Shown: one piece after another, positions 1 to 47,457 of the stretch
Numbering within the stretch: the stretch's first letter is position 1
Layout of the letters: the number at the start of each line of letters is the position of its first letter
Source: a virus
Virus record (IMG/VR): IMGVR_UViG_3300002460_000007
Direction: 5' to 3' (one strand)
DNA: 47,457 nt
Program-made: the position numbers and the translations under genes
The notes under the pieces: generated by a model
Told to the model about the DNA's origin: nothing
Seen by the model: only the letters and a program-made list of their open reading frames with translations
Databases searched by the model: none

Positions 1-43
1 ACAATCGCCACACCAAGAGGCGCTGCTAGTACACTCACCACAA
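1..43. repeat. Terminal identity, left copy: identical to 47415-47457
   Basis: Direct comparison of both ends: acaatcgccacaccaagaggcgctgctagtacactcaccacaa. The identity ends at 43 nt. Confidence 0.9.
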
Positions 44-100
44 CGTCTGCATGAGTGGCAGCAATCAGTACAGGTGCCACAATCGCCACACCAAGAGGCG
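1..100 (-). repeat. 78-bp coding tandem repeat: full unit 1-78 plus a partial diverging unit from 79
   Basis: 1-23 equals 79-101. The unit encodes a 26-aa Cys ladder, CGDCGTCTDCCHSCRRCGECTSSASW, on the minus strand. Confidence 0.85.
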
Positions 101-624
101 CAGCTAGAACAACTCCGAACTCCACAGTCCCCGCAAACCGAAAACCCCCTCACGAACTCATTGCAGTCTGAACACCAATGGTCGCACCCCTCACACTCAC
201 ACTCCGCACAATTTGGACACCTATTAGTATCTTCCTTGCATTCCTCACACTCTAATTGCAGTTTCCACAGGAATCTTTGCACAGCCGATAATAGGTCAAA
301 AGTCTCCCCAGTAGATTGTGCTACCTTTTCGGCAGTTTGGTAATGCTTCGCACACCAATACAAGCCCTCGATACTTCTCGTTCCCTCAAATAGACAGATT
401 ACACAAGACAGAGAATGGGCAGAGACAAGGGCATCATGCATTTGTACCATATACATAAATGGTGCATCCGCATATCCTAATGTTCCTGCTAATCTGATTA
501 TTTCGTTGTAGCAGTCCTTACAGAGATAAACATCCTCCTTGTATTGTTTTATGTTACGCGGTTCTGAAAGAGTCCAAGTAACAACAGCAACACCATGTCC
601 AAAGATGCATTGAGGTGCGTTCAT
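1..624 (-). CDS. N-terminal part (208 codons) of a junction-spanning Cys-ladder protein of about 456 aa; continues at 47414 down to 46668
   Basis: ATG at 624-622 with aggag upstream. I translated all 208 codons on the minus strand with no stop down to base 1 (MNAPQCIFGHGVAVV...CHSCRRCGECTSSASWCGDC). It is absent from the ORF track because it runs off the window. Confidence 0.8.
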   Translation of the reverse strand, partial: MNAPQCIFGHGVAVVTWTLSEPRNIKQYKEDVYLCKDCYNEIIRLAGTLGYADAPFMYMVQMHDALVSAHSLSCVICLFEGTRSIEGLYWCAKHYQTAEKVAQSTGETFDLLSAVQRFLWKLQLECEECKEDTNRCPNCAECECEGCDHWCSDCNEFVRGFSVCGDCGVRSCSSCASWCGDCGTCTDCCHSCRRCGECTSSASWCGDC

Positions 625-1419: not shown

Positions 1420-1550
1420 CACGGCCTATCACTTAGTCGGAGAGAGAATTGCCCAGCTTTGCACAGTTTCTCGCCGACTGTCTACCAAAATAACGCATAC
1501 CGACAGGCGAGTTTACCCTTAGCCCTTACCCTAGCCTTGAGCCGTGAGAT

Positions 1551-1898
1551 TTGCGCGTTTCGGCTGTCAGAGGGTCGCCAGCACGCGCATGTGCGGTCAA
1601 CAGATATGGGGCCGCTGTTGGGGTATGGGCAACAAAAAACGCGCCGTCTGTTGGCGCGTACAATGTGTCCCATGTCATATTGTCTCTAGGGTGTCAACAT
1701 TGTGGATACAACGAGCATGCCTACGCTTTGGACTTAGACCACATTGACCCATCCACTAAGTTTGCTCCGGTCAGTGCGATGGTGGGTAGCTACACCCTCA
1801 ACAGACTAAAAAAAGAGGTGGCAAAATGCACTGTCCTATGTGCAATCTGCCACCGTATTAAAACCTGGGAACCCGAACGGCTGTCCCTAGCGGTCTAG
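1551..1898 (+). CDS. HNH homing endonuclease; true start probably GTG 1665 or TTG 1680
   Basis: CQHC...LDLDHIDP...NRL...CAICHRIK, i.e. CxxC / DH / N / CxxCH, a zinc-type beta-beta-alpha-Me finger. Confidence 0.75.
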   Translation: MRVSAVRGSPARACAVNRYGAAVGVWATKNAPSVGAYNVSHVILSLGCQHCGYNEHAYALDLDHIDPSTKFAPVSAMVGSYTLNRLKKEVAKCTVLCAICHRIKTWEPERLSLAV

Positions 1899-1935
1899 GA
1901 TGCTATCTACGCGCTATCTACTCACTATGCGTTCG

Positions 1936-2286
1936 TTACTTCGCCTGGAGTAGCTTAGTAGCCACCGTTAGGGCATTGGCGCTTACTGTCGCAGGCGAGC
2001 TAGCCGGGGCCTTGTCCGGTAGGTAGAACCGAACGCCGCCTTTTGCGGGTAGACGGACTATCTCGCCCGTGTCAGTCATGGCATCGGTCACGGCCCGAAC
2101 AGCTTGGGTATCGATGCCAAACTCCGCACTAACCAGCTTGTTGAATGACAGATTGCCAGCCCACACAAGCGGGAAATTGCAGTGTACGCCGTTGAATCCC
2201 GTTTGCTTTGCGTTGACCGCAATCAGCTTGAGGATAAACAGACGTATCGCCAGCCCCGTTGTCTTACCCTTGCCTCGTGTTGTCAT
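1936..2286 (-). CDS. Putative winged-helix DNA-binding protein, 116 aa
   Basis: LSFNKLVSAEFGIDTQAVRAVTDAMTDTGEIVRLPAKGG resembles an HTH plus wing. The N-terminal GKGKTTG is P-loop-like. SD aagggaag. Confidence 0.45.
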   Translation of the reverse strand: MTTRGKGKTTGLAIRLFILKLIAVNAKQTGFNGVHCNFPLVWAGNLSFNKLVSAEFGIDTQAVRAVTDAMTDTGEIVRLPAKGGVRFYLPDKAPASSPATVSANALTVATKLLQAK

Positions 2287-2292
2287 TGGAGT

Positions 2293-2502
2293 CTACTTCC
2301 CTTCCTTGTCACCGTAACACGGGCGACATACAAACTGCCCATCATCTGTGAGCACTACATCTCGGACAGACTGCGAACAGTCTGCGCAGTAAATGTCATG
2401 CCCATGCCTCAGCCAATCGCTCAAATAAGAGACTAGATATTCCCGCTCATCTGGCGATAGCTCAGGGTCTGCTGTACCGATGCAATAGCTCGGTACTGTC
2501 AT
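2293..2502 (-). CDS. Zinc-ribbon protein, 69 aa (track ORF trimmed to the ATG with an SD)
   Basis: CADC...CRPC pairs. SD ggaagga before ATG 2502. Confidence 0.5.
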   Translation of the reverse strand: MTVPSYCIGTADPELSPDEREYLVSYLSDWLRHGHDIYCADCSQSVRDVVLTDDGQFVCRPCYGDKEGK

Positions 2503-2538
2503 GGGAGTATCCTTCCCGACAACGCGCAGAAGCATTCT

Positions 2539-2560
2539 AAACCGCTAGTGAAAGCGGTTT
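2539..2560. terminator. Intergenic hairpin aaaccgct-agtgaa-agcggttt
   Basis: Perfect 8-bp stem. The T run is partly inside the stem and the flanks are weakly U-rich. Confidence 0.35.
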
Positions 2561-2567
2561 GGATTGT

Positions 2568-2596
2568 GAATCAATGCCCTAGCTTGACTGTCGGGC
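2568..2596. repeat. Left arm of a 29-bp inverted repeat (27/29 with 2881-2909)
   Basis: GAATCAATGCCCTAgCtTGACTGTCGGGC compared with the reverse complement of 2881-2909. Confidence 0.85.
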
Positions 2597-2606
2597 GAAT
2601 TGTCAG

Positions 2607-2864
2607 TCAGGAAATCTCTTGCGGATTGCTTAGGTCACTAAGACGCCAGCCGAATGACCGCCACCTCCCAGGAGTCACCTGATAGGATGCATTGGCTTTG
2701 TTGCCGTGAAAGACGCGAACGAGCCCTATCCGTCGTTCGCCTTTGCGCGTTAGCTCCACGCAATCCTCGCTTGTACAGGGAAAGCATGCGTCATACCTAA
2801 GCATGTCAAAGGGGAAGTATCCGCTTCCCGATACGTTGAATGTCAGGCGGTATAGCTTGGCCAT
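2607..2864 (-). CDS. Hypothetical protein, 85 aa, bracketed by the 29-bp inverted repeats
   Basis: Only long ORF between the repeats. The SD is weak. Confidence 0.5.
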   Translation of the reverse strand: MAKLYRLTFNVSGSGYFPFDMLRYDACFPCTSEDCVELTRKGERRIGLVRVFHGNKANASYQVTPGRWRSFGWRLSDLSNPQEIS

Positions 2865-2880
2865 CGGGAGCTCACTCTCT

Positions 2881-2909
2881 GCCCGACAGTCAGGTTAGGG
2901 CATTGATTC
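2881..2909. repeat. Right arm of the 29-bp inverted repeat
   Basis: gcccgacagtcaggttagggcattgattc. Confidence 0.85.
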
Positions 2910-3007
2910 GTATTGCGGCGGCTCTGGAAGTCACGGTGGGGGACTTTTGCTGCCAGCTTGTCCGCCGTGCGCCTGATATGTGGGCGCTATGTGAATGTAC
3001 TATGATG

Positions 3008-3037
3008 AGGGTACTCCGTTCATTCGGCGTTTGTCAA
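3008..3037 (-). promoter_or_regulatory. Possible weak leftward promoter: gTTGACAAAC-18-TACCCT
   Basis: The -35 matches the phage promoter family. The -10 is only a TAnnnT match. Confidence 0.3.
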
Positions 3038-3358
3038 CTTGCGTCGCGTTCCTATCACAGCCCAAATGCACCCAAATACTCCCACGTCAGATAGGGGCAT
3101 CTCAGAATAGCTCATCCTCAGATACGACTTCATATACCCCCTGGGGGTATGCCCATCGTACGCCGCACGTGCACAGGCAGGCGCGAGGGATAGGATGTCC
3201 ATCGGACAAGGCACGGCCCGCGAAACCAGACCCTTAACTTTCTATGGTATCAAGAATTAATAGGGGGGTAGGTACTTAAATCGAGAGCGGGATTTTCTGC
3301 AAAGGGTGGTCAAAAGGGGGTGTTATAAATAGGCAGAAATATAAAATAGTGTGGGGGC

Positions 3359-3387
3359 TTGACAAAGGTGCGCGGATATGTTATAAT
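3359..3387 (+). promoter_or_regulatory. Consensus promoter: TTGACA-17-tgtTATAAT
   Basis: Perfect hexamers and extended -10. Confidence 0.8.
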
Positions 3388-3397
3388 GTAGGCAAAG

Positions 3398-3616
3398 ATG
3401 AGTAATGTTATGGAGGAGGGAAAGATGCAGTCAATGAGCGGGAGCAATTCGTCCTTTGTCTTGTGTACTTATTGTAATAGGTATCCGTGCTCTTGTTACA
3501 TTAATTATAGACCTTTTGCCTGTGAGCACTGTTACTGCAGTGAATACTCCAATGACCATCTACAGTGTTGTAAGTGTTATACAACTATGCACAAGAAGTT
3601 CGTTGAGAAGATGTAA
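3398..3616 (+). CDS. Small Cys-rich protein; alternative start ATG 3425 after ggaggaggg
   Basis: 12 Cys in the last 63 aa (CTYCNRYPCSCY...CEHCYCSE...CCKCY). It has its own promoter. Confidence 0.6.
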   Translation: MSNVMEEGKMQSMSGSNSSFVLCTYCNRYPCSCYINYRPFACEHCYCSEYSNDHLQCCKCYTTMHKKFVEKM

Positions 3617-3637
3617 TTGATAACTTTCCCTCACATC

Positions 3638-3666
3638 TTGACAAACTCTTTCAAATGGTGTATAAT
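3638..3666 (+). promoter_or_regulatory. Consensus promoter: TTGACA-17-TATAAT, head of the structural arm
   Basis: Perfect hexamers. Confidence 0.8.
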
Positions 3667-3680
3667 AGCAAGGAACGAGC

Positions 3681-3696
3681 GCAGGGGGTCTTTATA
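3681..3696 (+). promoter_or_regulatory. Conserved downstream box: GCAGGGGGTCTTTATA
   Basis: GGGGGTC starts 18 nt after the -10. GGGGGTC (3685-3691) can pair with GACCCCC (3722-3728) around the terS ATG. Confidence 0.55.
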
Positions 3697-3703
3697 ATAA
3701 CAA

Positions 3704-4132
3704 ATGGCCGTAACCAAGCTTGACCCCCGAAAAGAGAAAGCAGCCCTCCTCATCGCTGAGGGATGGAAACAGGTAGACGTAGCCCGTGAGATGGGAGTTT
3801 ACCCACAGACTGTCAGTCGGTGGATGAAGGAGGAGGACTTTACAGCAAGGATTGACGAACTTCGAGTAGACCTGACAAGTCAGGCCGTCACCTTGCTACG
3901 CGAAAGCGTAGTTGAGAATACCGAGATAGTCTTGAAGATTGCGAAACAAGGCGGCGAACCAGGAGTGGTTAGCTCACAATTAAAGGCCGCACTATGGGCA
4001 ATCGACAAGGTGCTCGGCAAATCAGCAGAGGAAACCGCTACGCGTTCAACTAGAGCGGTTAAATCTGTTGAATCTACTCTTCTAAAGCAACCAGAGGAAG
4101 AGTTGCAGGAGTTGCTTGATAGAGGGAAGTAG
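3704..4132 (+). CDS. terS: Terminase small subunit candidate (HTH protein)
   Basis: HTH-like VDVAREMGVYPQTVSRWMKEE. It overlaps the start of the large terminase. Confidence 0.65.
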   Translation: MAVTKLDPRKEKAALLIAEGWKQVDVAREMGVYPQTVSRWMKEEDFTARIDELRVDLTSQAVTLLRESVVENTEIVLKIAKQGGEPGVVSSQLKAALWAIDKVLGKSAEETATRSTRAVKSVESTLLKQPEEELQELLDRGK

Positions 4133-5522
4133 TAAAACAGAAAAGTTAATAAAGCGAGGGGAACGTGCTAGGCAGAATTTTGCCGAGTTTTGCCGCTTTG
4201 TACTTGGATTCAACCCCGCAGCGCACCAAAAACAGTGGATTGAAGAACTACAAAAGATAGGAGATGACCCAAATGGGCGGAAACTTATCATCATCGCTCC
4301 CCCTGGTAGTGGAAAGACCCAGCTTGTCGGTGTGGGATTTACTGCATGGATGCTTGGTAGGCTACCGGACAGACATTACGGACTTCTCTCCTACGCGGAC
4401 TCCGTTGGCTGGAGTCGTAGTTACGCCATTAGGAATCTCATCGAGTCTAGTCTCCCCTATCGCATTACCTTCCCAGAAGTCCGACCTGACAAGCGAAGAT
4501 GGGGCACCAGTGAGTTCCAAGTCTCTAGAACAGACCTCGCTGACCCACACCCAACTCTTAGGGCTGGTGGCACTACTTCGGCAGTCGTGGCATATAGACT
4601 CAATGGATTGGTCATTGACGACCCCCACGACCAAAAGAACTCAGGAACCAAGGCAAACCTAGACAAAGTTTGGGAAAACTACGACAACGCAATCTCCACG
4701 CGCCTCACCTCAGACGCTTGGGAAGTAGTAATTGGCACTAGGTGGAGTGATGCCGACTTTATCGGTCGGAAATTGAGCCAAAAGGGAGTAAAAGTCTTGC
4801 ACACTGCCGCACTTTTGCGCGGTGACAAGTCATATTGGGAGGAGGCTTATCCCGCTGAGTTCCTGATTAACAAGCGTTACCAATCTCCGGCCATGTTTGC
4901 CATGCAATATATGGGTGATACCAAGGGTGGAGAGGCCCAAATCATCCGTAAACTGCACACTTGGGACAGCTACAGTCGTCCTCCGAAGTATATAAGGGAT
5001 GAGCTTGACCTACTTGTGGCCTCTTCGTGGGATACAGCGTTCAAAGAGAAGGAACAAAACGATTTCACAGTTGGGTATATTGGGGGGATGGACAAGCACG
5101 GACGTATTTACATCCTTGACCGCATCAAAGGACGCTGGGGACTTCCTGGTTTGCTCGACCAAATCGCTGAATCTGCCCAAAAATGGAACGAATTTGCCAT
5201 TTGGGTCGAAGATGCGGCCTCTGGAACTCCCGCTGTACAGACTTTGATGGCCCACTCGATGCTTCCAGTCCAAGCAATGCCCTACAAAGGTGGGAAAATG
5301 ACCCGCGCCCACGCAATTGCACCGTTTTTGCACGGTGGACACGTACTTTTCCCTTCTGGAGAGGAGTGGTTCCCTGATTGTGAGTACCAATTGACTCATT
5401 ACCCGAACACAGGGCACGATGACGACTTGGACGCACTTTTTTTACTCATTGACAACCTTACCAAAATGAGGCATCCTTCAACAATCCTCAATCGACCAAG
5501 GATAATTATGGAGATGCGGTGA
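4116..5522 (+). CDS. terL: Terminase large subunit
   Basis: Walker A IIIAPPGSGKT and Walker B LVIDDPHD. The C-terminal nuclease-type acidic motifs include GHDDDLDAL. TTG start. Confidence 0.9.
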   Translation: MIEGSSKTEKLIKRGERARQNFAEFCRFVLGFNPAAHQKQWIEELQKIGDDPNGRKLIIIAPPGSGKTQLVGVGFTAWMLGRLPDRHYGLLSYADSVGWSRSYAIRNLIESSLPYRITFPEVRPDKRRWGTSEFQVSRTDLADPHPTLRAGGTTSAVVAYRLNGLVIDDPHDQKNSGTKANLDKVWENYDNAISTRLTSDAWEVVIGTRWSDADFIGRKLSQKGVKVLHTAALLRGDKSYWEEAYPAEFLINKRYQSPAMFAMQYMGDTKGGEAQIIRKLHTWDSYSRPPKYIRDELDLLVASSWDTAFKEKEQNDFTVGYIGGMDKHGRIYILDRIKGRWGLPGLLDQIAESAQKWNEFAIWVEDAASGTPAVQTLMAHSMLPVQAMPYKGGKMTRAHAIAPFLHGGHVLFPSGEEWFPDCEYQLTHYPNTGHDDDLDALFLLIDNLTKMRHPSTILNRPRIIMEMR

Positions 5523-14080: not shown

Positions 14081-14093
14081 TTCTGTGCAGGAC

Positions 14094-14122
14094 TTGACAA
14101 ACTTGCCTAAGTGTGTTATAAT
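14094..14122 (+). promoter_or_regulatory. Consensus promoter: ggacTTGACA-17-tgtTATAAT
   Basis: Perfect hexamers and extended -10. Confidence 0.8.
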
Positions 14123-14165
14123 GAAGATTAGGTAAGAATGATTAGTTTCAAGACAGGAGGTTTCC

Positions 14166-19254: not shown

Positions 19255-19550
19255 TGGCGTGGGTAGTTGATGAAGACACAAGCTTTGTTGTAGGTGATAG
19301 TCCTCACGTTATAACAATCAACGCGGACTCCACTCTGCACAAGTACCCCCCTGTCAAGGGCTACATTGCCTGCGATGGGACAGGCAACATACTCATAGAA
19401 ATGGCCAGATTTGGCACTGGTTATGAAGACCAATTCACCTTAAAGACTGCTGAGGTAGTGGAGTTTGAGGGAGAAATTGGACTAGTACGAATCACCTACT
19501 CAGGAACAGACTCAGCTTATCGCTGTGTGGTTCAAACACTAATCAATTAG
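19254..19550 (+). CDS. Virion-module hypothetical protein, 98 aa
   Basis: ATAATGG coupling with the upstream gene. Confidence 0.6.
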   Translation: MAWVVDEDTSFVVGDSPHVITINADSTLHKYPPVKGYIACDGTGNILIEMARFGTGYEDQFTLKTAEVVEFEGEIGLVRITYSGTDSAYRCVVQTLIN

Positions 19551-19554
19551 GGAC

Positions 19555-19583
19555 TTGACAAACTAGTGAAAATGTGTTATAAT
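19555..19583 (+). promoter_or_regulatory. Consensus promoter: ggacTTGACA-17-tgtTATAAT
   Basis: Perfect hexamers. Confidence 0.8.
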
Positions 19584-19596
19584 AAAGCTGTATACG

Positions 19597-30022: not shown

Positions 30023-30036
30023 GAATCACTAATTCG

Positions 30037-30065
30037 ATTATACCACATTCAGAGGCGTTTGTCAA
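30037..30065 (-). promoter_or_regulatory. Consensus promoter: ggcTTGACA-17-tggTATAAT, pointing at the end of the late arm
   Basis: Perfect hexamers on the minus strand. The leader is homologous to the 1394-1419 leader. Confidence 0.75.
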
Positions 30066-30182
30066 GCCCCCTGGCGATAAATCTTTGACAAGGCATAGAT
30101 TAGGAACAACGGTGCTACTGCCAGCGGTGCCCACCACTGCCCGTTCATACCCGCCACTGCTGCAACGGACAGTACATAGAAT

Positions 30183-31927: not shown

Positions 31928-31989
31928 GGGTACAGTTATCCTTTCGATAAACTATTAGGCTATTGGCTCTCCGAGCGGGGGAGGACTCT

Positions 31990-32018
31990 ATTATACACCA
32001 TCCCTCGTTGTTTGTCAA
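31990..32018 (-). promoter_or_regulatory. Consensus promoter: ccTTGACA-17-TATAAT, upstream of nrdJ
   Basis: Perfect hexamers. CCCCCGC, an inverted half of the box, follows. Confidence 0.8.
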
Positions 32019-32140
32019 GGGGTGGGGCCTACCACTCTCCTACCACCCACCCTTCGCCTCTGCTTCTCCTCAGTCACCATTAGACTGCCTCAAGGCGTCA
32101 CCAATACACAGAAGCGGTTTGATAGGCCCCGATATTTATC

Positions 32141-42987: not shown

Positions 42988-44508
42988 CTACCTCAGTTGG
43001 TCGTGGAACCACTGAGGAAAAGCCTTTTTATTCCGGTCATACAGGTTTGCAAAACTCCCGTCCAAAATGTAGGTTTCGCAGTAATCATCGGCACTTCGCA
43101 TTCCTCTTCCAATAGTTTGACTAGTGTAGGCGGCAGTGGAATTGAAATAAAACTTTTGTCCCATTCCCCCATCGTTTGCACGAAGATTGACGAGTGGGTC
43201 AGCCAAGTCTGGATATCTAATCTTGGCAATAAGTTGGATTCGACATTGCTCGTCGTCGAAGGACTCTCCTTCTCCGATTGATGGGTGTATAATCCATCCT
43301 GCCTTGCTTGCTCGAAACCTGTCAAGAGTCTCAACACGTTTCCCTCCACGACGTAGAAGTACCAGCCTAGACCGGCAGTCCTGACACCGTAAGATTGTCC
43401 TTGCCAGCCTATCCACCTGAGATACAGAGGCGACGTGGATGATTCCTTTATCCCCACTTCTGCTGTGTATGTATTCATGACATGCTAACCCCATCCTTTC
43501 CCAGTCCTTGACGGACGAATCCTTGTTCATCGAAGCCACGGGTCTATAATACACCGGCCAGCGCCATTTGTCAAATGGGGACGGTGCAGATATATACTTG
43601 TAGTCATCCTTGTACCCTAACAATTCTGCAAAAAAGTCTCCTCCCCATAATGTGGCTGACATAACTAATACATGATTGGCAGACTGGAGCAAAGATTCGG
43701 CGCTCTTACGGGGCCAGAGTGGAGTAGCCTCAAACAAGTCATCGGCACGGGTTACTATAAGCCCCGCCGGACTTGTGGCTAGTCCCTGTAGCTGGTACAT
43801 AAGAGATAACCAAGCCTTTGCCCATTTACTGCCAGATAACGTCAGACCGAAGGCACGTTTACGAACCTTGTCTACATTGAGCTTTGCCCAAGTTTGCATA
43901 GGTTCTATCTCGTTGGACGCTGGAACCTTTAGGTTAAGCTTCTCGCACAATCTCCGGTCAACAGTGATTGTCTCTGCTTGAGTGAGGAAATCTAACAGTC
44001 GGTGCCCCTCATCACAGACTAACAGGTGTGGACGGCGCTCATGCCATCGCTTACCCTTCAGTAGCTCAGACATATACAATGCATAGTTTGTTACCACTAC
44101 TGCCGAGCGTCTGTACTCCTCCTCCTGTGCATAAAAGTCAGAGTTACAAGATATAGACGAGTCAGCTACACACGGAGCGTTCGCTGCCGTAGTCTTGTAT
44201 CTCAGGGTGCACTCGAAGTTATCCCTGCCTACCAGTTTGCAGACACGAGGGAAGTCCGCATCGTATTGGTTCTGCAAAGATATGGTGGCCGTATTGATGA
44301 CAGTGAACGGTGAACCTATCAATTCTGCCAATGATATAGCAATTGCAGACTTCCCGATTCCAGTGGGCAGCTCTAGCATAGTAAGCCTGCCTAATTTAGT
44401 TGAAGATATTGTCCCCAATTCACGGGCTATTTTAATTAAGATATTTCTTTGCATCTCTCGTGCCTCAGCGTAGCGTGGCCCTAGTCCGGCGAAAATTTCC
44501 TCTATCAT
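42988..44508 (-). CDS. SF2 helicase, DinG/Rad3(XPD)-like (track ORF trimmed to ATG 44508)
   Basis: Walker A LPTGIGKS, DEGH box LLVCDEGHRL and a C-terminal IGRGMRSADDYC. ATGA coupling with the upstream ORF. Confidence 0.75.
   Translation of the reverse strand: MIEEIFAGLGPRYAEAREMQRNILIKIARELGTISSTKLGRLTMLELPTGIGKSAIAISLAELIGSPFTVINTATISLQNQYDADFPRVCKLVGRDNFECTLRYKTTAANAPCVADSSISCNSDFYAQEEEYRRSAVVVTNYALYMSELLKGKRWHERRPHLLVCDEGHRLLDFLTQAETITVDRRLCEKLNLKVPASNEIEPMQTWAKLNVDKVRKRAFGLTLSGSKWAKAWLSLMYQLQGLATSPAGLIVTRADDLFEATPLWPRKSAESLLQSANHVLVMSATLWGGDFFAELLGYKDDYKYISAPSPFDKWRWPVYYRPVASMNKDSSVKDWERMGLACHEYIHSRSGDKGIIHVASVSQVDRLARTILRCQDCRSRLVLLRRGGKRVETLDRFRASKAGWIIHPSIGEGESFDDEQCRIQLIAKIRYPDLADPLVNLRANDGGMGQKFYFNSTAAYTSQTIGRGMRSADDYCETYILDGSFANLYDRNKKAFPQWFHDQLR
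43546..43574 (-). promoter_or_regulatory. Possible intragenic promoter: TTGACAAAT-...-TATTAT with a 17-nt spacer
   Basis: Perfect -35 and a 5/6 -10. The flanks resemble the 42356-42384 promoter. Confidence 0.4.
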
Positions 44509-44749: not shown

Positions 44750-45106
44750 CTAAGTGGCGTCCTCACCCTTAGCTCCTGTCAAGGTCTCTGCAAACAACTC
44801 CCACGAACTACTATAGAGCGCTATATTACGCACAGTACCATCTACATCAATTACTCTAGTTTGTAGGCTGTGTATTACCTCTTCTAATTTCTTATTTATT
44901 TTCACTATTGCTTTGAGCGATTCCGTACCTCCCCACAATATTAGAGTCTCTTGGGGGTGGGCGCACTGTGCAAATATGTGAAGTAGGAAATTAATAATCT
45001 GTTCCTTACCTACGTTATGCCTTTGAAATTCAGCCAATAGTTTTTTCAGTAGCGCATCACGGTCTGACAAAACCAGTAGAGACGGGCGGCTCTTACGTTC
45101 TTTCAT
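44750..45106 (-). CDS. Hypothetical protein, 118 aa
   Basis: ATGA coupling to the upstream gene. Confidence 0.55.
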   Translation of the reverse strand: MKERKSRPSLLVLSDRDALLKKLLAEFQRHNVGKEQIINFLLHIFAQCAHPQETLILWGGTESLKAIVKINKKLEEVIHSLQTRVIDVDGTVRNIALYSSSWELFAETLTGAKGEDAT

Positions 45107-46659
45107 GCCTTAAACTCCTCCCATAGAATCGCTGGCCGCACATGATGTGTCTTTTCTGTACAGGATGTGCAGTAAATGTCGTCCGTCGTGTCGTTCCTTC
45201 CGTGTGGTCGTTCAATCATAGACTGTAGCATGGTACAACAACTCTTGCACTGCCAGTAGAACCCATTAGTCTCAAAATCTGCAAGCCTAGTGACTCCTCG
45301 ACCCTGTGCCTCCTTCACCTTCTCCCTAAATGCTATTCGTCTTGCCTTACGCTGCTTCTTACCTTCCTTCTTCTCAGCCCGCGTCTTGTATTTCGTGCCT
45401 TGATTCTTATTAGTTGATGCACTAAGACTGACAGGAGCGGGCGGGGTAGGTTCACCAGCAAACCCGTAGATGAACGCTCGTTGTGCGTAGGTTTCGATGG
45501 CTTCTTGACAGTGGTTCTTTCGCACCAGGTTGATAGCATCTAGCGCCGTCATCTCTAACAACTCTACCGCCAACAGTGCCATGAACGTGCCCGTCCTGCC
45601 ATGTCCCCCCATGCACCCAATGTCTACCTTCTTGCCCTCTTTTATTAGCTCTGTCGCAGCCTTGACAATGTGTAGTATGTATGGACTACGCGGTGCGCTC
45701 ATGTCTGTCCAGTCGTAGAACAGGCACGGGAAAGCCACATCTATCTTTACCAATTCTCTTGGGAAGTCCGGCGTCACCGTCAGTTTATGCGACCACGAGA
45801 TAGTAGAGAAGTAGAAGCCATAGTCCGGTCGTATGTCCGTGTCCTTCGCACTATTCTTATCGGAGGATGCAGAGGCATAGACAGTGTATTCTCCTAGTTT
45901 CACAGGGTCACGCCAGTGGTCGCAGTTGTGAAATCCTCCGCCGTACCACTGTGAGTTCTCGTATCTCCCATAATTGTATACGTTGCTCCGGTGGTACGTG
46001 CTTGCCAGACTAGGTGTTACGCCCTGCCCTGTCCCAACCTCAGTGAACGAACCATCAGACATTTTGCGAAATCTATGGAATCGTGTCTGCCCACAAACTA
46101 GGCACTCTAACTTAGGAGATGTATTGTTCGTCGTCCCCATGACCACACGATAGAGAAACTTGTGCTGTTGGTTTGTGCCACATCTGGCACAGAAGATGTA
46201 ATCCTCATCCTCTTCTTCTGTATCAGCGGGGTCGTTCTCATCGGTAGTGTCAGGTATGTTGAGCACGTTCTTCTCCCACCACACAAGGAACTCAAAATTT
46301 ACACCATCTGAATACAGTTTCTCAATGCTAATGTCAGCTACGCTCACGTCCTTGCCGAAAGTGGTCTTACACTTCACACAGATAGCATCGGCGTTGGTTG
46401 CTAGTCCGTCTTCTGATTCTAGTGCGTGGTATTCCACACTTCCACAAGTGAAACAGTATAGATTACCTCCCGCCCATACCTCTTGCTCTATACAAGTGCA
46501 GCACAAATCACACCGGCCACAATCATGACATAGGCACAAGTCACAGACAGGGAATGTGTCACAGTTTGTTTCCTTGCAATAGTAAAGTAGCCCGTCGACT
46601 TTCATCTCTGTCTTACATAGCCTACAGTGTACCGCCTCAGTTGGTTTTGTTATTGTCAT
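45103..46659 (-). CDS. Multi-zinc-ribbon / Cys-ladder protein with a cysteine (CX5R) dual-specificity-phosphatase-like domain
   Basis: P-loop VDIGCMGGHGRTGTF (codons at 45586-45627). Upstream is a general-acid loop FYDWTDMSAP; downstream is AINLVRKNHCQEAIETYAQRAF. N-terminal ladder CDLCLCHDCGRCDLCCTC. Confidence 0.7.
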   Translation of the reverse strand: MTITKPTEAVHCRLCKTEMKVDGLLYYCKETNCDTFPVCDLCLCHDCGRCDLCCTCIEQEVWAGGNLYCFTCGSVEYHALESEDGLATNADAICVKCKTTFGKDVSVADISIEKLYSDGVNFEFLVWWEKNVLNIPDTTDENDPADTEEEDEDYIFCARCGTNQQHKFLYRVVMGTTNNTSPKLECLVCGQTRFHRFRKMSDGSFTEVGTGQGVTPSLASTYHRSNVYNYGRYENSQWYGGGFHNCDHWRDPVKLGEYTVYASASSDKNSAKDTDIRPDYGFYFSTISWSHKLTVTPDFPRELVKIDVAFPCLFYDWTDMSAPRSPYILHIVKAATELIKEGKKVDIGCMGGHGRTGTFMALLAVELLEMTALDAINLVRKNHCQEAIETYAQRAFIYGFAGEPTPPAPVSLSASTNKNQGTKYKTRAEKKEGKKQRKARRIAFREKVKEAQGRGVTRLADFETNGFYWQCKSCCTMLQSMIERPHGRNDTTDDIYCTSCTEKTHHVRPAILWEEFKA

Positions 46660-46667
46660 TCGCTCTC

Positions 46668-47457
46668 CTATCTAAACGTGTGGGAACCAAACTGTTTCCA
46701 CGCATGATAACGCTTAGTGTGTGGTTCTTCTTCCGGCAGATGCTTCTCAACGTACTCTATTCTACCCTCCAAGTTGGCATCGAGTATATCTTTGAGCCCA
46801 TACGTCGTCCACAGTTTGTTGAATATGCAGCCGTTGTTATGCTCCAGTCCGAAAGCGGTATCAACAAATGTGACCACACTAATCTCACCCTCCTCGAACT
46901 GCCTGAGTGTGGCCGCCACTTGTGCCCAAGCATGACCACCTACTGACCTTCCCCACTTGCCTTCTTCTAGAGCGTACTCCGCCTCTCTAAGAATGTCAGT
47001 GCCATACTCATCGCGCAGGGTTTTCCACTCTGCCCACGCCTTGCCTCGATTGATGTTACCATACTTACGATACCTTTTGTGTATTCTAGGCATCAGTCTC
47101 TTAGCCTCACCATCACCAATCGTCTCCGACCCATACCTAATCTCCCCACCAACAGCCATGTCTAGATAAGGAGCAAAGACTTCGGCCAGTTCCTTCGCGT
47201 AGTTCTCAAACTCTTGCTTGTAGCTTGGGTCACGCTCGGCCATAGTTGCTAGAGTATAGAATGTGGCCGCCGCTTGGTGTAGCTTAAACACAATGGGCAA
47301 CCCCCAATCTCCTACAGCCACATCAGATTCGGAATCGTGCCCGCAGTCACATTCACCGCTGCTAGTACACTCACCACAACGTCTGCATGAGTGGCAGCAA
47401 TCAGTACAGGTGCCACAATCGCCACACCAAGAGGCGCTGCTAGTACACTCACCACAA
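46668..47457 (-). CDS. C-terminal part of the junction-spanning Cys-ladder protein (orphan 217-aa domain plus repeat region)
   Basis: The frame is open from 47457 down to the stop at 46668. The track start (GTG 47321) is internal. The frame matches 1-624 after removal of the 43-nt overlap. Confidence 0.75.
   Translation of the reverse strand, partial: CGECTSSASWCGDCGTCTDCCHSCRRCGECTSSGECDCGHDSESDVAVGDWGLPIVFKLHQAAATFYTLATMAERDPSYKQEFENYAKELAEVFAPYLDMAVGGEIRYGSETIGDGEAKRLMPRIHKRYRKYGNINRGKAWAEWKTLRDEYGTDILREAEYALEEGKWGRSVGGHAWAQVAATLRQFEEGEISVVTFVDTAFGLEHNNGCIFNKLWTTYGLKDILDANLEGRIEYVEKHLPEEEPHTKRYHAWKQFGSHTFR
47359..47457 (-). repeat. 78-bp coding tandem repeat, right-end copies
   Basis: 47359-47414 equals unit positions 23-78. 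47415-47457 equals unit positions 1-43. Confidence 0.85.
47415..47457. repeat. Terminal identity, right copy: identical to 1-43
   Basis: Same 43-mer as the window start. It lies inside a coding tandem repeat. Confidence 0.9.

Follow-up and report, generated by a model that had tools for sequence, protein, structure and literature searches.

A Repeat-Bounded Single-Gene Cassette in the Early Operon Leader of a Groundwater Phage

Introduction

A long inverted repeat that encloses a single small gene raises the question of what the repeat is. It could mark the ends of a mobile or invertible cassette, form a pair of operator sites or build a long RNA stem, the roles that an earlier note made from the sequence alone had offered for this locus. 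The locus lies in the window, that is, the whole stretch of 47,457 nucleotides that was analysed (IMG/VR record IMGVR_UViG_3300002460_000007). As set out below, the inverted repeats are very probably the ends of a repeat-bounded, single-gene indel cassette of about 340 bp. The best explanation as a whole, with a transposase-type insertion included, is that this repeat-bounded cassette was gained in the window's lineage, and in its entirety this account is a tentative one.

The Phage Genome and Its Near-Identical Carriers

The window is a phage genome, complete or nearly so. Its large terminase is less than 30% identical to that of any GenBank phage, and therefore the phage has no close cultured relative; BLASTN of positions 1500-4200 against GenBank phages returned no match. 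The genome encodes terminase, helicase, ribonucleotide reductase, amidase and one tRNA, together with a Rad52-type annealing protein, an ERCC4-type nuclease and a family A DNA polymerase. The minus-strand ORFs at 39340-41460 and 45103-46659 encode this polymerase, which has an N-terminal domain of the UDG superfamily fused to it, and a protein of 518 aa in which a dual-specificity phosphatase-like domain was detected. No serine or tyrosine recombinase, resolvase, invertase or transposase was found in Pfam scans of 28 ORFs, comprising 8 local ORFs and 20 from elsewhere, 19 of the latter from 28.7 kb on (mostly minus strand). The earlier statement that the genome holds no recombinase is consistent with these scans, which covered little of the plus-strand block at 5.5-28.7 kb, presumed to be structural.

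Near-identical copies of the phage (at least 99.9%) were found in many groundwater metagenome assemblies, and the repeat-bounded unit is real, since it is identical in contigs from many samples and from several assemblers. Of 26 contigs read, 13 loci were compared base by base, and in these near-identical loci from independent assemblies the arms have one common orientation, with zero substitutions within the unit. One contig of 47,493 bp (L040) contains a small rearranged or duplicated stretch at 3367-3423 (about 3323-3354 in the window) and is otherwise identical; this difference adjoins, on the upstream side, a rightward promoter at 3359. Repeat units with a period of 78 nt occupy both ends of the window (1-111 and 47337-47447), and the window ends are assembly ends rather than physical genome ends, because other contigs run through position 1. 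Additionally, a family of near-consensus promoters, GGGSCTTGACAAAC...TGTTATAAT, is present on both strands and delimits transcription units:

1354-1399, 3354-3399, 3637-3667, 14089-14134 and 19550-19595, plus strand: members of the promoter family
30033-30066, 31986-32019, 42352-42385, 43542-43575 and others, minus strand: members of the promoter family

The Inverted Repeat

The unit consists of two arms and one gene:

2568-2596, no strand assigned: left arm of the 29-bp inverted repeat, the 3' arm in the mRNA, starting 10 nt past the stop codon
2881-2909, no strand assigned: right arm of the 29-bp inverted repeat, the 5' arm in the mRNA, ending 16 nt before the ATG
2607-2864, minus strand: 85-aa gene, a member of a large uncharacterised phage protein family

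Sequence comparison bore out the inverted repeat as first described, with the arms GAATCAATGCCCTAGCTTGACTGTCGGGC (2568-2596) and GCCCGACAGTCAGGTTAGGGCATTGATTC (2881-2909) complementary at 27/29 positions and spaced by 284 nt. When up to three mismatches were allowed, the 29-mer matched in the window at the two arms only. A pair of this kind appeared in none of 100 dinucleotide-preserving shuffles, in line with the earlier note, which did not expect the repeat by chance. Similarly, when the best inverted repeat around a 258-bp segment was scored, the 85-aa gene reached 23 versus 6-14 for about 290 random segments of the window. The arm centres are 313 bp apart, or about 30 helical turns, and internal dyad symmetry is absent from either arm. 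Both arm mismatches are transitions, which appear as G.U wobbles in RNA of the plus strand and as A.C mismatches in RNA of the minus strand, that is, the mRNA. The local hairpin (tgactg...cagtca) reported at the left arm, over the stop codon, does exist. On the plus strand it is only moderately more stable than its shuffled versions (-12.7 kcal/mol, z -2.6), and as mRNA it has no advantage over them (-5.7 kcal/mol, z -0.2).

The arms have, so far, no further copy. Exact scans, which miss diverged copies, found none in viral contigs and none in 185,579 reference genomes (one per species), and when the unit was compared by BLAST with plasmids and phages, no match reached significance. The exact-pattern scans tolerated no mismatch, while BLAST and the searches within the window tolerated a few. 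We know of no insertion sequence with matching ends; the left end TGTGAATCAAT resembles the IS481 end, GATTCAATAGG, which is a lead only.

Two partial likenesses were noticed. The inner 12 nt of the arms occur as a simple hairpin at one site, in a Gammaproteobacteria metagenome-assembled genome (L041, PWQG01000034.1, 1695-1782), where TGACTGTCGGGC-CT-GCCCGACAGTCA, placed after an NtrC-like gene, is identical to the inner 12 nt of both arms. The motif GCCCGACAGTC is found there 4 times in 5.6 kb versus 0.17 expected, and looks like a repeated extragenic palindrome, possibly a clue to the host or to where the arms came from. As a relative of the arms the hairpin was set aside, being one match among many genomic palindromes and compatible with chance. 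The left arm also resembles, at 27/30 positions and E 0.3, a segment of Citrobacter phage Sazh (window 2566-2595 versus L042 1201-1230) shared with about 40 Tlsvirus relatives, which is the terminator hairpin after the tail-fibre gene of Tls-like phages; the likeness was treated as probable chance.

The 85-aa Gene and Its Family

As the earlier note had stated, the arms enclose one ORF, the single real gene at 2607-2864 (minus strand), and the other ORFs overlapping the unit are mechanical. The gene is considered genuine because homologues exist: nine database proteins match it and share the family motif SGSGxFPxDMLRYDxCxP...GRWRSFGW, and a profile search over 1.84 billion cluster representatives recovered 4,267 relatives of the protein at E<=1e-3. 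The sole library match was phrog_11674, whose function is not annotated, and no match was obtained in Pfam, NCBIfam, PADLOC or the PDB sequences. The AlphaFold2 model is a confident small alpha/beta fold (pLDDT 94), with which a PDB fold search returned nothing below E 0.25, and the matches in a viral structure library were only uncharacterised proteins of Caulobacter and Acidovorax phages. A 50-aa variant protein (P0002) corresponds to an alternative gene call on identical DNA.

Flanking repeats do not belong to this gene as such. In 13 homologue contexts (7 metagenomic and 6 from GenBank phages) the homologues are ordinary genes of tight operons, and the flanking-repeat scores of 7-10 equal background, versus 23 here. 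The idea of a paralogue or internal donor was rejected, since the window holds a single copy of the family, and a foreign base composition proved uninformative, with 54% G+C in the cassette versus 50% in the genome.

Empty Sites in Related Lineages

Homologues of the two genes that lie next to the unit in the leftward direction, of 69 and 116 aa, led at 83-91% identity to short contigs of relatives. In this manner, four related lineages from groundwater metagenomes of the same sample series were found to keep both flanks and to lack about 339 bp. Positions 1876-2566 of the window align to these relatives at 79-87.5%, and the homology then jumps to about 2893 or later; in the case of L024-L027/L037, for instance, 83% identity over 1876-2566 is followed by resumption at 2893 with an 11-bp overlap. 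The filled site, the empty sites and the missing block are as follows:

Lineage W, the window, filled: GGATTG[TGAATCAATGCCC ... GGGCATTG]ATTCGTATTGCGGCGG
Lineage A, L024-L027 and L037, empty junction: AAGCGGTTTGGATTG^ATTCGTATTGCGACGG
Lineage C, L032, empty junction: GGATTTCGTATTGCGGCG
Lineage B1, L028-L030, empty junction: GGTTGATTTGTATTC
Lineage B2, L003, empty junction: GGTTGTGATTTGTATTC
2567-2905, no strand assigned: 339-bp block absent from lineage A, which reads ...GGATTG^ATTCGTATTG...

The ends of the 339-bp block are ambiguous by the 4-bp ATTG present at 2563-2566 and 2902-2905, and the gap relative to the other lineages amounts to 337-342 bp, with indel breakpoints 0-4 bp from the outer ends of the arms. 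Presence and absence of the unit, the polymorphism that the earlier note had proposed to look for, thus exists between the window and its relatives. Of the mobile or invertible cassette that it had suggested, the cassette half stands on these empty sites, with their breakpoints at the outer ends of the arms, but the invertible half does not, given the single orientation and the lack of a recombinase among the scanned ORFs. The relatives also lack the arms, an outcome that the earlier note had counted against its proposals, and this absence argues against a conserved regulatory role.

Operon Context

The cassette lies within the untranslated leader of an early operon that is read leftward, with the operon promoter on one side and a conserved hairpin on the other, among the following features:

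3008-3037, minus strand: candidate leftward promoter TTGACA-N18-TACCCT, aligned by eye
2518-2566, no strand assigned: element E, kept in all relatives, with the hairpin AAACCGCTAGTGAAAGCGGTTT at 2539-2560
2293-2502, minus strand: 69-aa zinc-ribbon-like gene, which opens the operon in cassette-free relatives
1936-2286, minus strand: 116-aa gene, 83-99% identical in relatives with and without the cassette
1870-1918, no strand assigned: element E', which repeats E in inverted orientation (35 nt at 80%, about 49 nt at about 78%)

In the relatives, the operon starts at the promoter, continues with the leader and hairpin E, followed by the zinc-ribbon and 116-aa genes, and ends at the terminator E'; the leftward promoter is situated about 100 nt upstream of the empty site. 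The positional homologues of the candidate promoter are TTGACA-N18-TATTGT in lineage A and TTGACA-N18-TATGGT in lineage B. If the candidate at 3037-3008 is the one in use, the cassette begins about 90 nt into the leader; at its other end, it starts 1-2 bp beyond the end of element E. No promoter-like or terminator-like site was found inside 2567-2905, and therefore transcription of the 85-aa gene must start at the operon promoter, with this gene as the new first cistron of the operon.

Element E' is in the relatives a clean intrinsic terminator of the leftward operon. The inverted repeat formed by E and E' brackets the zinc-ribbon and 116-aa genes and is kept in all relatives, and in the window the T-tract of E' is replaced by a second lineage-specific insertion. 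This insertion of about 227 bp (1649-1875, within the plus-strand ORF 1551-1898) is absent from lineages A, B and C and supplies an HNH endonuclease domain (phrog HNH, 7e-22). It abuts E' as the 85-aa cassette abuts E, about 700 bp away; both insertions lie directly outside the outward-facing hairpins E and E', and both inserted genes point inward.

Gain or Loss of the Cassette

A tree built from the 690 bp of flank that the lineages share has the form ((W, L032 87.5%), A 83%, (B1, B2 about 79%)), with the unit in W only, so that it can be read as one gain versus two to four losses. Additionally, the arms differ at 2/29 positions versus about 6-12 predicted under neutral decay since the root of the lineages, a figure that is our own estimate from the 79-87% identity of the flanks and the 63-67% identity of the non-coding right flank. 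Gain in the window's lineage is favoured for these two reasons, as roughly twice as probable as loss elsewhere. What speaks for repeated loss, the less probable reading, is that a deletion of 337-342 bp ending no more than 4 nt from the base of the stem would turn the filled site into any of the empty ones. Deletions with end points at a stem base are the product of hairpin-stimulated deletion.

Junctions and Origin of the Cassette

The junctions can be parsed in two ways. With lineage A as the reference, the insert spans 2567-2905 and its junction shows an ATTG microhomology of 4 bp. Eight bases at the outer end of the right arm, ATTGATTC (2902-2909), then count as pre-existing flank, since the empty sites of this lineage already contain them. 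It follows that the GAATCAAT of the left arm would be an inverted copy of local sequence, and this parse points to a template-switch or fold-back origin. In the alternative parse, read from the junction sequences, the inserted element is shorter:

2573-2904, no strand assigned: putative 332-bp element with 24-bp terminal inverted repeats (22/24)

This element would be flanked by a 5-bp duplication, GAATC (2568-2572) and GATTC (2905-2909), 4/5 identical. The target of L003 reads GGTT-GT-GATTT-GTATT and, with an L003-like target, the window reads GGATT-GT-GAATC[24-bp repeat ... 24-bp repeat]GATTC-GTATT. The B2-like target assumed is GGATT-GT-GATTC-GTATT, with a near-palindromic 5-bp core and one substitution needed. 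Terminal inverted repeats with a short target duplication are the classical signature of DDE transposases. The GAATC/GATTC duplication fits an L003-like target only; versus lineage A, the repeat is the 4-bp ATTG, which overlaps the right arm. Between the flank and the left arm stand 1-2 unexplained bases (T or GT). The insertion site is a slippery TTG(TG)ATT run in which small indels differ in each lineage, and because of this variation the ancestral state of the site cannot be fixed.

Our preferred account is that the block was gained in this lineage and not lost from the others, and that it may have arrived as a non-autonomous passenger cassette with terminal inverted repeats, similar to a mobile insertion cassette or a gene-carrying MITE. 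A transposase acting in trans would have placed the cassette and duplicated the near-palindromic 5-bp target GATTC, and the repeat would seem to be 29 bp instead of 24 bp because of this duplication. Once in the leader mRNA, the arms would pair as a 27/29-bp helix closing off the new cistron and forming a plausible RNase III substrate. The predicted helix has 29 bp with two A.C mismatches, longer than the roughly 20 bp of near-continuous double-stranded RNA expected of an RNase III processing helix. It would end 16 nt before the ATG and resume 10 nt past the stop codon, which would hinder ribosome loading. Such an RNA stem across the ORF, one of the roles that had been proposed, is physically plausible and forms in silico.

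As to the mode of arrival, transposition mobilised in trans is ranked first, a recombination or template-switch scar next, and an old RNA stem with repeated loss third. Transposition has to contend with the lack of a second copy of the terminal repeat in scans that tolerate no or few mismatches and of a transposase among the scanned phage ORFs, with the substitution that the 5-bp duplication needs and with the ancestral 'GT' that is missing in the two closest relatives. Moreover, with lineage A as the reference, the flank already contained the outer 8 bp of the right arm, something that a ready-made element with repeats at its ends does not predict. These 8 bp, with their inverted local copy in the left arm, speak instead for a scar, an explanation that is unlikely but has to be taken seriously. 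According to it, the gene entered by illegitimate or short-homology recombination and the left arm was copied inverted, in place, from the upstream junction through a template switch or fold-back in replication or break repair, so that the repeat would be a by-product and the unit not mobile. The ATTG microhomology is in line with this, as are the left junction ATTG-TGAAT-CAAT, a short quasi-palindrome, and the motif CAGTCAGG, which is found at 2604-2611 and again at 2887-2894, with its inverse core TGACTG at 2585-2590. The phage also has the annealing protein, the nuclease and a polymerase of its own, a second lineage-specific insertion 700 bp off beside the sister hairpin, and a unit that is single-copy in all collections scanned. 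However, a scar requires either a single complex event or two successive ones, in which the gene was inserted first and 29-30 bp were duplicated in inverted orientation afterwards; no intermediate was seen, and the tidy parse into repeat plus duplication becomes a coincidence. Less probable again, and on the whole improbable, is an ancestral functional RNA stem, that is, an old repeat-bracketed gene whose arms are under selection because a long helix in the leftward mRNA excises or insulates the cistron, for example by RNase III processing, and which the relatives lost by hairpin-stimulated deletion. The helix is present in the minimum-free-energy and centroid folds of the leader-to-gene transcript, which is not independent evidence because it follows from the repeat itself. 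The 27/29 identity would be above neutral decay if the unit is old, the four empty junctions differ by few bases and each lies no more than 4 nt from the stem base, and cleavage would start the downstream mRNA just before hairpin E, as in the cassette-free relatives. On the other hand, the tree requires the unit to have been lost independently at least two to four times, and arms of this kind are missing around the homologues of the gene elsewhere. Selection on an mRNA helix would also be expected to leave G.U pairs in the mRNA, whereas the mismatches there are A.C and become G.U only when the antisense strand is read. For covariation in the arms the carriers are too alike, being at least 99.9% identical with no substitution in the unit.

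The remaining two explanations are very improbable. For an invertible segment, in which a site-specific recombinase would flip the 342-bp unit and so switch the gene on or off, the geometry resembles that of known invertible elements; switches of the hin, gin and fimS type have 20-30-bp repeats around a few hundred bp. Nevertheless, all 13 of 13 loci showed the same orientation in this assembly-level comparison, the unit has no internal promoter, the relatives lack the whole unit instead of carrying it flipped, and the scanned ORFs contain no resolvase, invertase or tyrosine recombinase domain, although a host enzyme is possible. Equally hard to credit are paired operators, bound at both arms by a regulator such as the 116-aa protein with looping of the DNA between them. 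Their appeal comes from the two near-identical sites 313 bp apart and from a possible winged-helix gene nearby, but that assignment, made in the earlier note for 1936-2286, found no Pfam match, and the AlphaFold model is of low confidence (pLDDT 58), its order alpha-beta-alpha-alpha-beta-beta being merely compatible with a winged helix. The arms are without the dyad symmetry of an operator and have no further site in the genome. Above all, four relatives keep the 116-aa gene (83-91%) without the arms, and therefore the arms are not a conserved partner of this protein, which leaves the proposed operator pair without support from the relatives.

Comparison with Known Systems

In mobile insertion cassettes, of which MIC231 from Bacillus cereus is an example, and in gene-carrying MITEs, IS-type terminal inverted repeats surround passenger DNA; both are non-autonomous and are moved in trans. 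The present cassette is similar to them in its 24-29-bp terminal inverted repeats around a non-transposase passenger gene, located at the ends of the insert, in its possible short target duplication, and in a site that is filled in one lineage and empty in relatives. It differs in that one copy is known, with no cognate insertion sequence or transposase found, and in that the host is a phage without a detected integrase or site-specific recombinase rather than a bacterial chromosome or plasmid. The cassette is also much smaller than MIC231 (about 1.9 kb), and its target duplication is imperfect and depends on an assumed ancestral site. In the precise excision of Tn10 and Tn5 and in palindrome-stimulated deletion, the end points fall on short direct repeats where the stem of a long inverted repeat begins, and the relation of each empty site to the filled site is of this kind; however, such excision explains loss only and leaves the origin of the repeat unexplained, and the tree favours gain.

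Closer in size are the mycobacteriophage elements MPME1 and MPME2. MPME1, an ultra-small element of 439 bp, is described as carrying a single small ORF and an inverted repeat on either side, left and right (PMC3029335; Sampson et al. 2009 as cited there). The same text describes MPME insertions as having no ordinary target duplication and extra bases between the left repeat and the target, and as present at several independent sites in many phages, with the ORF travelling with the repeats (PMC3029335). Presence or absence between closely related phages, the inverted repeats, the one small ORF and the extra bases between flank and left arm (T or GT here) are shared with the cassette. Different from MPMEs as portrayed there, it occupies one site, and 13 homologues of its ORF are without repeats. 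Sequence similarity is lacking, with no mycobacteriophage match over the arms, and the mycobacteriophage homologues of the gene are ordinary operon genes.

Morons bring their own promoter and terminator, while the promoter-plus-stem-loop (PeSL) cassettes of T4-type phages are recombining direct repeats (PMC2839356). The cassette is like both in placing a single accessory gene between conserved blocks of a variable early region, with indel borders at terminator-like hairpins (E and E'), and its gene is inserted, as that of a moron is, between two genes that are adjacent in related phages. It is unlike morons in that the gene has neither promoter nor terminator of its own, and unlike PeSL in that the bounding repeats are inverted, not direct.

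Implications

The acquisition of single accessory genes by tailed phages without integrase or transposase is mostly put down to a vague 'illegitimate recombination'. At this locus the filled site and four empty ones are resolved to single bases. Should the repeats be true transposon ends, the unit, found in a phage, would count as one of the smallest known mobile units with a gene; if they are the scar of a template switch, it would be a clean natural example of a gene gain that creates long inverted repeats. More speculatively, and with little confidence, the unit could represent a class, with no member seen before it, of ultra-small passenger-gene cassettes (about 330 bp) bounded by inverted repeats. 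Such cassettes would move accessory early genes between phages free of integrase and transposase and insert beside terminator-type hairpins, and their repeats would double as an RNA helix insulating the cistron. The first cistron of an early operon is a position often held by host-takeover or anti-defence genes, and the gene gained here is a member of a very large uncharacterised phage family that has become the first cistron of such an operon.
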